Source of the DNA: Escherichia phage AidaStucki_Bas93
Sequence record: PQ850593.1
Strand: one strand, 5' to 3'
Length of the DNA: 64,000 bases
In this document: one piece after another, positions 1,603 through 7,652 of the stretch
Position numbering within the stretch: position 1 is the stretch's first letter
Layout of the letters: every line of letters begins with the position of its first letter
The notes under the pieces: generated by a model
The model's database searches: none
Told to the model about the DNA's origin: nothing
What the model saw: the letters and a program-made list of their open reading frames with translations, nothing else
Translations under genes and position numbers: made by a program

Positions 1603-3846
1603 ATGGCTAAGCAAAAATATAGTGAAGAGGTGTTGGACGAGTTACGTGTTGACCTTCAACGTCGTTTTAATTACGCTCAAGGTTACGTTGACATGGCTGT
1701 TAAGGGCTATGCTCGTGAAGCTTGGGAATATTTCTATGGTAACTTACCTGCACCAGTAACTGCTGGCAGCTCTAGTTGGGTAGATCGTACTGTTTGGGAG
1801 TCTGTTAACGGTACGCTGCAAGATATTATTAACGTATTCTGTTCTGGTGATGAAGCAGTTATTTTCGTAGCTGATAACCAACAGGATTCTGATGCTGCTG
1901 ACGTAGCAACTAAATTAGTTAATCAAATTCTTCTGCGTGATAATCCGGGATACAACATTATCTCTTCTGCTGCACAAGAATGTCTGGTTACTCGTAACTC
2001 TTTTATCAAATATTATTGGGATGAGCACACTTCTACCCAAACCGAAGAAGCTGAAGGTGTACCACCGGAGGCATTGGCTGCATATGTTCAGGGATTAGAA
2101 GCTGGTGGACTCAAGAATCTGGAAATCTTCACTGAAGAAAACGAAGATGGTACAGTAGATGTTAAAGTTACTTATGAACAAACTGTTAAACGTGTGAAAG
2201 TTGAATATGTTCCTTCAGAGCAAATCTTTGTTGACGAACATGCTACCTCTTTTGCAGATGCACAATATTTCTGTCATCGTGTACGTCGTTCTAAAGAAGA
2301 TCTGGTTGCTATGGGCTTCCCTAAAGACGAGATTGAAGCATTCAACGACTGGACAGATACGATGGATACCACTCAATCTACAGTTGCTTGGTCTCGTACT
2401 GACTGGCGTCAGGACATTGATGCTGACATTGGTACAGATACCGAAGATATCGCTTCTATGGTTTGGGTTTATGAGCACTACATCCGTACTGGTGTTCTAG
2501 ATAAGAATAAAGAGTCTAAACTCTATCAGGTTATTCAAGCTGGTGAGCATATCCTTCACACTGAAGAAGTAACTCATATTCCGTTTGTAACCTTCTGCCC
2601 ATATCCGATTCCGGGTTCCTTCTATGGTCAGTCAGTCTATGACATTACGAAAGATATTCAGGATTTACGTACCGCGTTAGTTCGTGGTTATATTGATAAC
2701 GTCAACAATGCTAACTATGGTCGATACAAAGCACTCGTTGGTGCATACGATCGTCGCTCTCTGCTTGATAATCGTCCCGGTGGAGTGGTTGAAATGGAAC
2801 GTCAGGACGCTATTGACCTGTTCCCATACCATAACCTACCTCAAGGTATTGACGGCCTATTAGGTATGTCTGAGGAGCTTAAAGAGACACGTACTGGTGT
2901 AACTAAACTTGGCATGGGTATCAACCCTGACGTGTTTAAGAATGATAACGCTTATGCAACTGTAGGCTTGATGATGAATGCTGCACAGAACCGTCTCCGT
3001 ATGGTATGTCGTAATATTGCTCACAACGGCATGGTTGAATTGATGCGTGGTATTTACAACCTTGTCAGAGAAAACGGTGAAGTTCCTATTGAGGTACAAA
3101 CCCCTCGTGGTATGGTTCAGGTAAATCCGAAACAATTACCAGCTCGTCACAATCTTCAAGTTGTGGTAGCTATTTCTCCTAATGAGAAAGCAGAACGTGC
3201 ACAGAAATTAATTAGCTTGAAACAGCTGATTGCAGCAGATGCACAGTTAGCACCTCTCTTTGGTTTGGAGCAAGACCGTTACATGACTGCACAGATCTTT
3301 GAGTTGATGGGTATTAAGGACACTCATAAGTACTTACTGCCTCTGGAACAGTATCAGCCTCCTGAGCCGTCTCCGATGGAAATCCTCCAGCTCGAGATGA
3401 CTAAAGCACAGGTTGAGAACGTACAGGCTTCCTCTCAGAAAATGATTGCTGATGCATTCGACCAACGTGAACGTACTACATTCGAACAGCAGAAAGCTGC
3501 GGATGAGTTAAGTCTGCGTCAGGAAGAGTTGCAGTTCAAGCAAGAAAATGCAGCAGATGCTATGACTCTGGAAAACCGTAAAGAAGATAACAATGCAACT
3601 CTGGAACAAGCAAAGCACAAGTTAGCTCTTATGCAACAGCAGGTCCGTCAGTATGAGTCTGTACTGAAAGAATTGCAGATGGTTATGGAGCATCAGGTAG
3701 ACCAAGAGAAGATTGTTCAGCAATTTCGTGTTCAGGATAAAACTTTGGAACTCCAAAAGAAAGAAGCTAATGTAACTAAGAAAGAGCAACAAGCCTCTCT
3801 CAAAGATTCACGGATTCCAGGCAAACGTCTTGGAAGTAAAAAGTAA
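1603..3846 (+). CDS. portal protein
   Basis: 747 aa. Lies immediately after terL, has portal-typical size, and ends in a long Q/E/K-rich helical tail. SD gagggagag lies upstream. Confidence 0.85.
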   Translation: MAKQKYSEEVLDELRVDLQRRFNYAQGYVDMAVKGYAREAWEYFYGNLPAPVTAGSSSWVDRTVWESVNGTLQDIINVFCSGDEAVIFVADNQQDSDAADVATKLVNQILLRDNPGYNIISSAAQECLVTRNSFIKYYWDEHTSTQTEEAEGVPPEALAAYVQGLEAGGLKNLEIFTEENEDGTVDVKVTYEQTVKRVKVEYVPSEQIFVDEHATSFADAQYFCHRVRRSKEDLVAMGFPKDEIEAFNDWTDTMDTTQSTVAWSRTDWRQDIDADIGTDTEDIASMVWVYEHYIRTGVLDKNKESKLYQVIQAGEHILHTEEVTHIPFVTFCPYPIPGSFYGQSVYDITKDIQDLRTALVRGYIDNVNNANYGRYKALVGAYDRRSLLDNRPGGVVEMERQDAIDLFPYHNLPQGIDGLLGMSEELKETRTGVTKLGMGINPDVFKNDNAYATVGLMMNAAQNRLRMVCRNIAHNGMVELMRGIYNLVRENGEVPIEVQTPRGMVQVNPKQLPARHNLQVVVAISPNEKAERAQKLISLKQLIAADAQLAPLFGLEQDRYMTAQIFELMGIKDTHKYLLPLEQYQPPEPSPMEILQLEMTKAQVENVQASSQKMIADAFDQRERTTFEQQKAADELSLRQEELQFKQENAADAMTLENRKEDNNATLEQAKHKLALMQQQVRQYESVLKELQMVMEHQVDQEKIVQQFRVQDKTLELQKKEANVTKKEQQASLKDSRIPGKRLGSKK

Positions 3847-4092: not shown

Positions 4093-5177
4093 TGCCACAA
4101 GATAATTATATTGACCCGAACGATTTTAAATCTTTCCTCCAACTGGATGACCTGAAGGGTTCTTTCAAAGAAGAACTTGGTCGATTAGAATCTGAACAAG
4201 AACCAGAAGTGGACATTGACGATGAGTTCCCGGAAAAAGATGGTGACGATTTCGACTTTGATACCGACCTTCTCGGTGAAAGCGATGAGCTTAAGTTCGA
4301 AGATGAAGATGGTTGGGAAGATCGTGATGAGGAAGGCGAAGTCGAAGAAGATGGGGACAACTCTGACGAAGGTGATGAAAACGCTGAAGTAGAAGAGGAA
4401 GACTCAAGCGATGCAGGATATGGAGATGATTCTGCTGACGGTGAAGGTGAAGTCTTTGATGTAGACTATGAAACCGTTATCACCCTTCCTGATGGACGTG
4501 AGATGACTATTGAAGAACTCTCCAATGGCTATCTTACTGGTGCTGATATGGCTGAACGTGAGACTACTCTTCAGCGTCACATGGAAGCATTTGAGGAACG
4601 TGTAGTAGGTTTGAAGGATGTATTAGAATTAGCGTCTTTAGAAGCAGACCGAGTAATTGAGGATTACAACGGTTTTGATTGGGACAAGCTTGCAGTAGAA
4701 GATCCTCAAGCATATGTTGAAAACAAACGTTTCCTAGAGAAGTATACAGCTCGTCGTAACCAGCTTGAACAGGCTCAGATCCGTATTAAGCAGGAAGCAG
4801 CAGCTAAAGAGCAGGAAGCTTTCCAAGCCAAGAGCATTGAATGTGTTAATATTCTGAAACGTGAGATTCCAAATTGGGATGAAAACTTATATCAAAACTT
4901 AATGCAATACGCAATTGACTTAGGTGCTACTGAAGAAGAAGTATTGAAGGAAAACCGTCCGTCTATTTTCCTAGCCCTTCACAAAGCATACCAATTTGAT
5001 AAAGGTAAGCAGCAGGTGATGGCTAAGATTAAACGTCCCGGTGCTCCACGCAAGGTTGTGAAGTCTGATGCTGCAAAGTCTCGCACTTCCAATAAGCCAG
5101 ACAACGCTAAGGTTGCCAAGGCATTCGCAGAGGGTCGCGTTAGTCACGAAGACGCATTCAAATTCCTCGTAGATTAA
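4092..5177 (+). CDS. scaffolding protein (putative)
   Basis: 361 aa. Very acidic D/E-rich N-terminal third followed by a helical, coiled-coil-like region. Lies directly upstream of the major capsid gene. Confidence 0.6.
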   Translation: MPQDNYIDPNDFKSFLQLDDLKGSFKEELGRLESEQEPEVDIDDEFPEKDGDDFDFDTDLLGESDELKFEDEDGWEDRDEEGEVEEDGDNSDEGDENAEVEEEDSSDAGYGDDSADGEGEVFDVDYETVITLPDGREMTIEELSNGYLTGADMAERETTLQRHMEAFEERVVGLKDVLELASLEADRVIEDYNGFDWDKLAVEDPQAYVENKRFLEKYTARRNQLEQAQIRIKQEAAAKEQEAFQAKSIECVNILKREIPNWDENLYQNLMQYAIDLGATEEEVLKENRPSIFLALHKAYQFDKGKQQVMAKIKRPGAPRKVVKSDAAKSRTSNKPDNAKVAKAFAEGRVSHEDAFKFLVD

Positions 5178-5218
5178 TCGACAAATTAATTATTTAATAG
5201 TATAGGAGCTAACATAAC

Positions 5219-6280
5219 ATGGCTAATCCAACTTTATTTGTATCGTATGACCAGAATGGTAAAAAACTTTCTTTTGCTAACTGGATTTCTGTTCTGTCCC
5301 CTCAGGATACCCCGTTCGTATCTATGACCGGTAAAGAGTCTATCAACCAGACTATCTTTAGCTGGCAGACCGATGCACTGGCAAGCGTTGACGGTAATAA
5401 CGCACACGTCGAAGGCTCTCGTGCTGAAGACGGCGAAATGAAACCGACTGTTATCAAATCTAACGTTACTCAGATTCTGCGTAAGGTTGTTCGTGTTTCT
5501 GATACTGCTAACACCACCGCTAACTACGGTCGTGGTCGTGAACTGATGTATCAGCTGGAGAAGAAAGGTAAAGAGATCAAGCGTGACCTCGAGAAAATCC
5601 TTCTGTCCGGTCAGGCTCGTACCGATGTTCTGGCTGACCAATACCTGACTAACTCCGCAACTGATCCTGCAGCTGTTGGTCTGAACGACACCCACGCAGC
5701 TCGTAAGACTGGTGCTTTCCAGTTCCTGTGTGCACACAACGGTGTTTCTGCTGGTGTTGTTAAGAAAGAAAATGGCCCTGCTGATCCGGATACTGGTGCA
5801 GTAACTGTTAAAGTTGCACAGAATGCTTCTAACCCGACCACTAACGTTGGTTTTGATGAAGCTGATATCTTTGATATGACTCTGCAACTGTACACTGCTG
5901 GTTCTGAAGCAGATATCATCATGATCAACCCTGCTCATGCTAAGATCTTCGCTGGTCTGCAAGAAAACACTCAGGGTTCACGTAAGCGTATCTTTGAGAA
6001 CACCAAGCAGTTCATCTACGAAGTTAACAGCATCACTGACCCGCTGGGCCAGAACTACAAAATCATCGTTAACCGTTGGATGCCTACCGATGCAGTTTAC
6101 TTCTTCCGTAGCGCTGACTGGACTCAGATGGTCCTGCGTGCTCCGAAACGTACTGAACTGGCAAAAGATGGTTCTTATGAGAAGTGGATGATTGAAATGG
6201 AAGTTGGTCTGCGTCACCGCAACCCTTATGCTTCCGGAGTTCTGTTCACTGCTGCGGGAAAGTTGGATCCGCAACAGTAG
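5219..6280 (+). CDS. major capsid protein (SU10/phiEco32-type, HK97 fold)
   Basis: 353 aa. N-terminal ISVLSPQDTPF motif as I recall for this capsid family. Highly biased codon usage, strong SD (taggag), and position after the scaffold gene. Confidence 0.85.
   Translation: MANPTLFVSYDQNGKKLSFANWISVLSPQDTPFVSMTGKESINQTIFSWQTDALASVDGNNAHVEGSRAEDGEMKPTVIKSNVTQILRKVVRVSDTANTTANYGRGRELMYQLEKKGKEIKRDLEKILLSGQARTDVLADQYLTNSATDPAAVGLNDTHAARKTGAFQFLCAHNGVSAGVVKKENGPADPDTGAVTVKVAQNASNPTTNVGFDEADIFDMTLQLYTAGSEADIIMINPAHAKIFAGLQENTQGSRKRIFENTKQFIYEVNSITDPLGQNYKIIVNRWMPTDAVYFFRSADWTQMVLRAPKRTELAKDGSYEKWMIEMEVGLRHRNPYASGVLFTAAGKLDPQQ
6256..6262 (+). promoter_or_regulatory. candidate -1 programmed ribosomal frameshift heptamer G GGA AAG
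   Basis: X XXY YYZ heptamer in the capsid zero frame, 16 nt before the capsid stop. The -1 frame is open from 6196 and runs into the Ig-like ORF. Confidence 0.5.
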
Positions 6281-6285
6281 ACAGT

Positions 6286-6798
6286 GTGACTGTTAGCCCT
6301 GCGTCTGTAGAAAGTCTAGAGACAGGGGCTACTCAGCAGTTTACTGCAAGCGCTGAGAAGAGTGACGGCTCTACCGAAACAACTGGCTTTACTTGGTCAG
6401 TAACAGGAGGCGGTTCTATCACTCAGTCTGGTTTGTATACTGCTCCGAGTGCGGCTCAATCCACTGATGTATCCATTACTGCGACTTTAGAGGGTGTTTC
6501 TGGTACAGCAACCATTTCTGAAATTGTTGATCCTGCCCCTACTATTGTAGCTAAGGGTCCAATTACAGGTAAAACTGGTGGTTCTTCCACTAACTTCACT
6601 ACCATGTTTACTGTAACTAATTCTACTGCTGCGGATTACACGTTTGTTGTAACCCCTGCAGAAGCTGGTACAGTAAGCGCTGCTGGTGCGTTAACCTTAG
6701 ATGATGCTGCAAGTGGCGAAGTTACTGTTCAAGCAAGTTTGACAGCTGACCCGTCCATCAATGCAACATGCACTTTTACTGGTGTAACACCTGCTTAA
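6286..6798 (+). CDS. tandem Ig-like (Big_2-type) domain ORF, probably a C-terminal extension of the capsid protein
   Basis: 170 aa starting VTVSPASVESLETGATQQFTA (Big_2 signature). Its only start is a GTG with no SD, 6 nt after the capsid stop. The domain signature (ATVDSVTVSP) continues upstream of that GTG in the same frame. Confidence 0.7.
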   Translation: MTVSPASVESLETGATQQFTASAEKSDGSTETTGFTWSVTGGGSITQSGLYTAPSAAQSTDVSITATLEGVSGTATISEIVDPAPTIVAKGPITGKTGGSSTNFTTMFTVTNSTAADYTFVVTPAEAGTVSAAGALTLDDAASGEVTVQASLTADPSINATCTFTGVTPA

Positions 6799-6805
6799 AA
6801 CTAGA

Positions 6806-6829
6806 CCCTGCCTTCGGGCGGGGTTTTTT
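6806..6829 (+). terminator. Rho-independent terminator
   Basis: ccctgcc-ttcg-ggcgggg stem (UUCG loop) followed by tttttt. Confidence 0.7.
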
Positions 6830-6857
6830 CGTTTTAAGACCTATACAAGCCAGCGTG

Positions 6858-6866
6858 TAATGTATA
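6858..6866 (+). promoter_or_regulatory. TAATGTATA element (phage-sigma-type middle/late promoter)
   Basis: Exact TAATGTATA 34 nt upstream of the 6900 start and just after a terminator. It matches the consensus I recall for phiEco32 gp36 holoenzyme promoters. Confidence 0.6.
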
Positions 6867-6899
6867 TTCTTTGTCTACATATAACAAGGAGGACAACCT

Positions 6900-7652
6900 A
6901 TGGCAATGCCAGATGTTCAATACCCCATCAATACCTATGGGTGGCTAAAGAAGGCCGTGGCCCTCTGGGCAGATAGGGACGATGACGAATTTGTTAATCA
7001 AATTCCAAACTTTATTAACTTTGCAGAGAAAGAGATTTATCGTAACTTACGTATCCCTCCTCTGGAAAAAGAAGTGTACTTAGATATTAAAGATGGAGTA
7101 GCTTACATTCCTCCTGATTACTTAGAAGCTCAATGGATGATGAGAGCCAAAGATGGTACAATCTTCCAAGTAACATCTCCTGAAGAGATTAGCTATCGTA
7201 GACAGCATGGAACAATTAACCCATCTCATTGGAATAACCAACCTGTTAACTTTGCTCGTTTCGGTAGTCGTTTCATTTTCTACCCTAGCATCGAAGCAGA
7301 CACTCCGTACTATCCTGATGATGGAAGTCCTTTGATTCCAGCAGAAAACTCAGTAATTCTTAGTTATTATGCAGACCCACCGGAATTTCATGAAGATACA
7401 GATACCAGTGCTATCCTTACTATTGCACCAGAACTTCTTCTGTATTTCACTCTACGTCATGCTTGCTTGTTTGTTCAAGATGATAATGGAGTTCAGAAAT
7501 GGTCAGCATTAGGGAAAGCTATCCTTGATGAAATGGTAGAACAGAATAAGAAACAAGAGTACTCAGGTTCACCTATCGCAATTCCGAATAACATGACTCG
7601 ACTTCAGAGCAGCTTGCCTGATATTTATGGTATTCGTACTTCTCGTGTATAA
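6900..7652 (+). CDS. virion structural protein (possible head-tail adaptor)
   Basis: 250 aa. First gene after the capsid operon terminator and promoter. N-terminal region resembles head-tail connector/adaptor families. The function call is weak. Confidence 0.4.
   Translation: MAMPDVQYPINTYGWLKKAVALWADRDDDEFVNQIPNFINFAEKEIYRNLRIPPLEKEVYLDIKDGVAYIPPDYLEAQWMMRAKDGTIFQVTSPEEISYRRQHGTINPSHWNNQPVNFARFGSRFIFYPSIEADTPYYPDDGSPLIPAENSVILSYYADPPEFHEDTDTSAILTIAPELLLYFTLRHACLFVQDDNGVQKWSALGKAILDEMVEQNKKQEYSGSPIAIPNNMTRLQSSLPDIYGIRTSRV

Follow-up and report, generated by a model that had tools for sequence, protein, structure and literature searches.

Programmed −1 ribosomal frameshifting at the end of the major capsid gene has been described in several prolate-headed podophages related to phiEco32. 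In phage SU10, a GGGAAAG motif in the capsid gene was reported to fuse the capsid protein to the immunoglobulin (Ig)-like product of CDS10 (coding sequence 10), "as in phage phiEco32" (Mirzaei et al., 2014; PMC4281155), and the phiEco32 event is credited to Savalia et al. (2008) where it is mentioned in the SU10 and YF01 papers (PMC4281155; PMC9965538). YF01 and other members of the group make two capsid forms by slippage on GGGAAAG, most of the extended isoforms being about 500–550 amino acids (aa) long (PMC9965538). The motif is also used by Proteus phage Privateer, in which two capsid bands were seen and mass spectrometry detected the minor capsid protein (PMC7881722); according to the same report, a frameshifted product had been seen in both phiEco32 and SU10. 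The Privateer sequence record gives the GGGAAAG product as a joined CDS, with the annotation that mass spectrometry verified it in virions. Here we analyse the corresponding locus of Escherichia phage AidaStucki_Bas93 (PQ850593.1), within a stretch of 64,000 nucleotides (nt) which we call the window. The original prediction, made from the letters of this stretch, held that the capsid gene ends in a slippery site that would fuse it to two Ig-like domains, and asked whether this was already documented for the phage group. It is, and has been known since 2008; the finding presented here is correct, not new.

The major capsid gene of AidaStucki_Bas93 occupies 5219..6280 on the plus strand, as do all features given below (ATG at 5219, TAG at 6278–6280; open reading frame (ORF) list and translation). 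Its zero-frame product of 353 aa (39.0 kDa) matches the Pfam family SU10_MCP (PF17236, E 1.6e-77), is assigned to PHROG 1328, major head protein, and shares 98.9% identity with the capsid protein of phage LAMP. The end of the zero frame reads GCG GGA AAG TTG GAT CCG CAA CAG TAG, with its first four codons at 6254–6265, exactly where the original prediction had placed them, and the heptamer G GGA AAG at 6256..6262 stands in the X XXY YYZ register of a predicted −1 shift site, as sequence and conservation indicate. Among the 353 capsid codons it is both the sole in-frame X XXY YYZ heptamer and the sole in-frame A_AAG. The window contains three copies of GGGAAAG against seven expected, and the other two, as calculated from their positions, are out of slippery register. 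The −1 frame meets its last upstream stop at 6193–6195 and is then open from 6196 to a stop at 6796–6798, in agreement with the predicted opening into the Ig ORF; counted from the first base of the heptamer, it stays open for 180 codons. Both frames are open over 6196..6280, an overlap of 27–28 codons. Site and frames are read directly from the sequence.

The part that a −1 slip would add, at 6262..6798, comprises 178 codons plus the stop at 6796–6798 and matches PHROG 13745, "Ig domain containing protein" (E 2e-81). The predicted slip product, ...LFTAAGK-VGSATVDSVTVSPASVESLETGATQQFTA..., has 348 + 178 = 526 aa and a computed mass of 55.7 kDa, close to the roughly 526 aa and 55 kDa originally proposed. 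The residues that span the fusion junction around K348 are ...FTAAGKVGSATVD. The junction peptide suggested earlier as a mass-spectrometric marker (AAGK|VGSATV...) would be cleaved by trypsin at K348, at the junction itself; the diagnostic tryptic peptide of the shifted product is instead VGSATVDSVTVSPASVESLETGATQQFTASAEK, which starts upstream of the GTG at 6286 and is unique to that product. We put the probability that a −1 frameshift at this site makes a minor 526-aa capsid–Ig fusion at about 85%.

According to this interpretation, a small share of the ribosomes translating the capsid gene would slip back one base on G GGA AAG (6256–6262), the transfer RNAs on GGA and AAG re-pairing with GGG and AAA. 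The slipped ribosomes would miss the TAG at 6278 and read the −1 frame to 6798, giving a 526-aa capsid protein in which a short linker leads to two tandem Ig-like domains at the C-terminus; the majority of ribosomes would remain unslipped and yield the 353-aa capsid protein. In the prolate head, the long form would be expected to co-assemble via its normal capsid fold, with the Ig domains displayed outside, and would in this way probably decorate the head. By analogy with Privateer and, as cited, phiEco32, virions would contain two capsid species, SU10 being equivocal in this respect. We infer the frameshift efficiency and the biological role of the Ig-like domains. Efficiencies of about 3.5% for lambda G/GT and about 10% for T7/T3 are quoted in the YF01 paper (PMC9965538), and for the 715 capsid subunits of SU10, 3.5–10% would be roughly 25–70 long copies per head.

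The heptamer by itself is not significant, with a chance of roughly 0.1, by our estimate, of finding one such heptamer within the 27-codon overlap; the slip site gains its significance because the heptamer is conserved and the −1 frame is open in relatives. Positions 5219–6798 of the window are 98.6% identical to Escherichia phages JacquesWildberger_Bas92 (Bas92 below) and LAMP, and share 95–96% identity with phiEco32, SU10 and numerous other prolate-head podophages of the Kuravirus-like group (Gordonclarkvirinae). Close-relative junctions were gathered from IMG/VR, GenBank and a metagenome scan, which was keyed on a capsid motif upstream of the site and was therefore not biased towards the heptamer; six of its 21 matches were unrelated chance ones and were discarded (L098, L104, L106, L114, L116 and L117). 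GGGAAAG is kept in all 19 kuravirus-like junctions obtained in total, and the −1 frame is open for 174–540 codons in each of them except the deposited SU10 sequence. Past the heptamer, the zero-frame tail drifts (GKLDPQQ*, GKVAA*, GKAVAA*, GKAGA*, GKAAA*), and the −1 reading passes through a short Gly/Ser linker and then converges on TVDSVTVSP. The junction of the window is identical in three independent isolates. The frameshift product deposited at NCBI for YF01, a major capsid protein of 892 aa (P0001), aligns with 99% of the 526-aa fusion at 84% identity.

The length of the extension varies from 174 to 540 codons among close relatives (L099, L100, L101, L108 and L123; P0001), with Ig-like repeats gained or lost. 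As far as these sequences go, the Ig decoration of the capsid appears to be modular, the capsid part and slip site being fixed and the Ig repeats variable. The linker includes GGATCC, a BamHI site, at 6266–6271 of the window, in place of the GCGGCG of phiEco32-type phages. It is not an engineering scar, because the natural isolates LAMP and Bas92 have the identical linker.

The arrangement extends to more distant relatives. Eight intermediate relatives with capsid proteins 67–88% identical were traced to their contigs; all eight have the downstream Ig gene in the −1 frame, which runs uninterrupted across the capsid stop, and their slip motifs are G GGA AAG, C CCA AAG, ACA AAG, TCA AAG and GTA AAG. 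The full heptamer G GGA AAG is also present in L119, L122, L123, Privateer and CsaP_009. An in-frame A_AAG (A_AAA in Escherichia phage PJNS034) occurs 0–15 nt before the capsid stop in 21/21 tabulated frameshift-type junctions, a table that takes in the Aeromonas-phage type, Privateer, CsaP_009, PJNS034 and L013 and reaches down to about 42% capsid identity. Among about 55 remote relatives (29–34% identity), all except three have a −1 frame that is shut less than 40 codons or so from the stop.

Several of these junctions have features of their own. In contigs of the Aeromonas-phage type (L008, at 4412–4445, L009 and L010), the capsid gene ends ...GTA AAG GCG TAA, without the full heptamer, and is followed after a 6 nt spacer by the G+C-rich hairpin GCGCCC-CUAC-GGGCGU; the Ig-bearing −1 extension has 167–169 codons. 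This junction looks like an unannotated frameshift in which a putative weak site is combined with a strong stimulator. PJNS034 (L018, about 3380–3789), whose capsid protein is 42% identical, ends its capsid gene in C CCA AAA TCC TAA; a strong hairpin (z −3.7) comes next, the Ig-like −1 extension has 130 codons, and the record has no frameshift annotation. In L013 / L034 (about 4418–4555), the capsid end GTA AAA AAG GCG TAA contains a dnaX-type heptamer, A AAA AAG; the 40-codon −1 extension is proline- and lysine-rich, has no Ig domain, and may have decayed or be of a different kind.

Other members of the family reach the same architecture by ordinary genes. Salmonella phage 7-11 (L015, 1482–4258) has a 312-aa capsid gene, gp008, then a terminator and a 585-aa capsid gene, gp009, which carries an in-frame C-terminal extension. 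The metagenomic contig L118 (996–3506) likewise has two capsid genes, for 315 aa and 501 aa, on either side of a 12-bp terminator, and GAP52 (L016, 2492–4629) has tandem short and long capsid genes as in 7-11. Tandem paralogous genes with an intrinsic terminator are an alternative way to a low long:short capsid ratio. Residues 312–398 of the 501-aa capsid paralogue P0020, to which they are joined in frame, are 62% identical to the second domain of the extension (E 8e-29). The single-ORF capsid proteins P0068, P0061 and P0108 bear both Pfam Big_2 and SU10_MCP, and BLASTP of the extension against P0068 gave no significant similarity between the P0068 Big_2 repeats and the first domain. The in-frame fusions of these relatives show that the predicted capsid–Ig architecture also occurs, in other members of the family, as an ordinary gene.

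The fold of the extension and its conservation come directly from the tools applied. An AlphaFold2 model built with 30 homologues has a mean predicted local distance difference test (pLDDT) score of 96.6 and contains two beta-sandwich domains, so that the two Ig-like domains foreseen by the original prediction are borne out by structure prediction. Ig-like domain 1, predicted to be Big_2-like from the model and Foldseek, covers extension residues 6–85 (6277..6516). Its first strand, A, is modelled at residues 6–12, from 6277, and begins over the capsid stop codon and before the GTG at 6286, as had been proposed for the Ig signature. Ig-like domain 2 covers residues 94–176 (6541..6789), as predicted by the model and by similarity to P0020. 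The best Foldseek match of the extension is the tandem Big_2 of Leptospira LigA (8gyr, E 2.5e-11), and tandem Ig-like modules make up the rest of the top matches. When the extension is searched as a profile against the PDB, Lig proteins match (E 2.8e-14), as do residues 324–418 of a 448-aa chain named "Major capsid protein" (E 3.8e-10), which we take to be phi29 gp8. The earlier label "Big_2-like" holds for the fold and falls short in Pfam, where Big_2 (PF02368) on the extension alone (residues 6–82) reaches 18.6 bits, below the gathering threshold of 22.8 (E 0.0019). On the whole 526-aa fusion, Pfam finds SU10_MCP only, with no Big_2 match at E 0.1 or better, and domain 2 has no Pfam assignment. 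Because the Pfam match is sub-threshold, the Ig claim rests on structure prediction. Several homologues of the extension have precomputed PF02368, and distant Big_2 proteins align with it from the VTVSP strand onward.

Lambda-type −1 shifts often, though not necessarily, come with a stimulatory RNA structure 5–9 nt downstream or a Shine-Dalgarno-like element upstream. The RNA downstream of the heptamer offers two candidate structures. A proximal hairpin directly 3′ of the heptamer (6263..6302), weak in the LAMP/Bas92-type lineage, has 93% of its cells paired over 11 relatives; in the window, four of its 14 pairs are broken. No two-sided covariation was found in it across the 11 relatives, and the fold of 6263–6300 (z = 0.0) is no better than shuffles. 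In the same relatives, the RNAalifold consensus also gives a distal hairpin (6286..6344, core 6294–6331), with three compensatory pairs (at one position, for instance, U-A, G-C and A-U) and 97% of cells paired, against 29–51% when the partners are slid. The fold of 6263–6340 of the window gives z = −2.3. This hairpin begins 24 nt past the heptamer, overlaps the alternative proximal one and is too distant from the heptamer for a classical stimulator; with 11 related sequences, its apparent conservation is suggestive only. Two further candidates were rejected. For an upstream Shine-Dalgarno-like stimulator, GGAG at 6236–6239 would be placed 16 nt ahead of the heptamer, but relatives have GGC or GGT there and the element is not conserved. 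The hairpin enclosing the slip site that was proposed for SU10 (PMC4281155), here at 6242–6284 (z −1.0), was rejected as a stimulator because it must be melted once the ribosome occupies the site. Rfam searches over 6000–7000 returned nothing at the junction and only chance-level small RNA matches near the terminator downstream of the extension.

A stand-alone protein made from the Ig ORF is the natural rival to the fusion. In the GenBank records of LAMP and Bas92, the ORF is annotated as a separate gene for a 170-aa "Ig domain protein" starting at the GTG at 6286..6288, which we consider more likely to be an internal valine codon; a free protein of 170 aa (16.7 kDa) could then act as a capsid-binding decoration or in some other role. 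The GTG is present in both the LAMP/Bas92-type lineage and the phiEco32 type, and SU10 gp10 has been treated as a possible weakly bound minor capsid protein (PMC9509320). However, no Shine-Dalgarno match lies within 20 nt upstream of this GTG, as originally stated, whereas all five neighbouring starts tested have AGGAG or GGAGG. The codon is GTA or ATA, keeping valine or giving isoleucine, in eight relatives (L004, L005, L006, L099, L100, L101, L108 and L110), where the first NTG comes 51, 105 or 144 nt past the heptamer, inside the domain. A stand-alone protein would begin mid-strand, because the GTG is extension residue 9, and a start there would, on the model, remove half of strand A. The GTG is also base-paired within the conserved distal hairpin, and the Ig ORF invariably occupies the −1 frame, with that frame always open backwards into the capsid gene. 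The N-termini called automatically for homologous "Ig proteins" are spread over about 60 residues, and there is therefore no consistent start for the Ig ORF. A credible independent start is absent, and we regard a separate gene as very unlikely. Termination–reinitiation coupling is known in bacteria, and a ribosome that stopped at TAG 6278 might restart without a Shine-Dalgarno sequence at GTG 6286, which sits just 5 nt past the capsid stop in the window, so that free Ig protein would be made in constant proportion to capsid protein. Yet this arrangement is not conserved: in the phiEco32 type the stop-to-GTG distance is different, and the heptamer and the open −1 frame persist in relatives that lack a nearby start. 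Reinitiation would yield the truncated strand A as well, and it leaves the invariant heptamer and the family-wide A_AAG unexplained; of the alternatives, we find it the least credible.

It has also been argued, for SU10, that the site is a relic with negligible frameshifting, whose extension is no functional component of the virion. The cryo-electron microscopy (cryo-EM) map of the SU10 head has no extra density for the Ig protein (PMC9509320), and no long-isoform band was seen on a gel of SU10, as reported by the YF01 authors (PMC9965538). The deposited SU10 sequence (L019, KM044272, about 2541–2600) reads ACACTGTCTACTG where phiEco32 has ACAGTGTGACTG, a difference of a 1-nt insertion, 30–40 nt past the heptamer, plus substitutions, which closes the −1 frame 13 codons past the heptamer; the insertion, which the YF01 authors noted likewise (PMC9965538), may reflect either an error in sequencing or a genuine loss. 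In AidaStucki_Bas93, by contrast, the −1 frame is intact over its 180 codons at a junction shared by three independent isolates, the extension is well conserved with a high-confidence model, and the frame is open in all other relatives; a relic is highly improbable here. Several points nevertheless weigh against the frameshift interpretation. No convincing stimulatory RNA structure at the canonical spacing of 5–9 nt was found in the window when folds were compared with shuffles, and no frameshift efficiency value was found in the literature for any member of the group. The short gap between stop and GTG leaves room for some reinitiation in the window. The missing cryo-EM density counts here too, with the caveat that the −1 frame is closed in the deposited SU10 sequence. 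In Table 2 of the SU10 proteomics, sequence coverage is 78.1% for gp9 and 50.3% for "9+10" (PMC4281155), which by our own arithmetic corresponds to about 275 and about 265 residues; because "9+10" covers no more residues than gp9, SU10 mass spectrometry is weak support, with no extension peptides shown. In the accounts cited, direct evidence within the group comes mainly from phiEco32 and Privateer. On balance, frameshifting is favoured over a stand-alone start because the heptamer is invariant (19/19) beside a drifting tail, the GTG is not conserved and modelled strand A begins upstream of it, and because relatives carry in-frame fusions and the same event has been reported (PMC4281155; PMC7881722; PMC9965538). 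The original frameshift proposal is therefore supported.

Three other mechanisms were set aside. Stop-codon readthrough is ruled out by frame, the extension being in −1; a +1 shift is likewise ruled out, with the +1 frame closing five codons past the stop; and transcriptional slippage is unlikely with an A run of just three bases.

What this analysis adds beyond the known frameshift is the family-wide A_AAG core, the tandem-gene alternative in relatives and the conserved downstream hairpin. These can be joined in one tentative proposal, which we think possible rather than likely as a whole: that capsid frameshifting is an ancient trait of the SU10_MCP family extending beyond Kuravirus, with a core that consists of a one-tRNA slip on A_AAG within the final six codons and that is strengthened in G GGA AAG and C CCA AAG; that it exchanges in evolution with the terminator-split pair of short and long genes; and that the 6286–6344 hairpin buries the spurious GTG and tunes the long:short ratio. 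In practical terms, annotation lags behind, since in LAMP, Bas92, Bas94 and most kuravirus records the capsid gene and an "Ig domain containing protein" appear as two separate entries. According to the evidence above, the second annotated gene encodes the C-terminal portion of a minor capsid protein made by frameshifting. This matters for virion proteomics, for the interpretation of cryo-EM maps and for phage engineering and display, the C-terminus of the long isoform being a natural surface-display site. The joining of Ig-like domains to structural proteins by programmed frameshifting is well-established biology, and no long-standing question is opened by the present case.

The surroundings of the junction are those of the group. 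In the window, the ORFs follow one another as portal, scaffold, capsid, Ig ORF and adaptor, which equals the annotated order in ShigP1, SU10, Bas92 and LAMP. The capsid gene has the Shine-Dalgarno sequence AGGAG at 5204..5208, 10 nt before its ATG at 5219. A strong intrinsic terminator with a 10-bp stem and a T tract follows the extension (6803..6836); no terminator was found between the capsid stop and the extension.

Among known systems, the closest are phiEco32 gp11/gp12, SU10 gp9/gp10 and the long isoform of YF01 gp8, which like the window have an SU10_MCP capsid protein (identity 95–97%), GGGAAAG 16–22 nt before the capsid stop and an extension opening with the TVDSVTVSP Ig domain. They differ in detail: the LAMP/Bas92 type has the zero-frame tail GKLDPQQ* and the −1 linker GKVGSA, whereas the phiEco32/SU10/YF01 group has GKVAA* and GKGGGV, the hairpin just past the heptamer is weaker in the LAMP/Bas92 type than in the phiEco32 group, and the YF01 type has many more Ig repeats than the window. 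Privateer (Grimontviridae) likewise has GGGAAAG at the end of an SU10_MCP-family capsid gene, with a −1 extension of 168 codons, but its capsid protein is 57.5% identical, its heptamer abuts the TAA stop and its extension domains are of another Ig type. Lambda G/GT shares the identical heptamer G GGA AAG and the −1 shift, a resemblance of mechanism and not homology; the lambda shift lies in a tail assembly chaperone gene and its products are assembly factors absent from virions. It is known for its low efficiency and has no requirement for a strong stimulator. Genes 10A/10B of T7/T3 also shift by −1 near the end of the major capsid gene, and the minor longer protein co-assembles, although slip site and capsid lineage are different and the T7 10B extension, about 53 aa, is much shorter. 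In 7-11 (gp008/gp009), GAP52 and L118, short and long Ig-bearing forms of the same capsid family come instead from two tandem genes (312–315 aa and 501–585 aa) with an intrinsic terminator between them and no frameshift. Finally, phi29 gp8 is likewise the capsid protein of a prolate podovirus with a C-terminal Big_2-type Ig domain, but there the domain is in frame on every subunit, in a capsid lineage unrelated at the sequence level.

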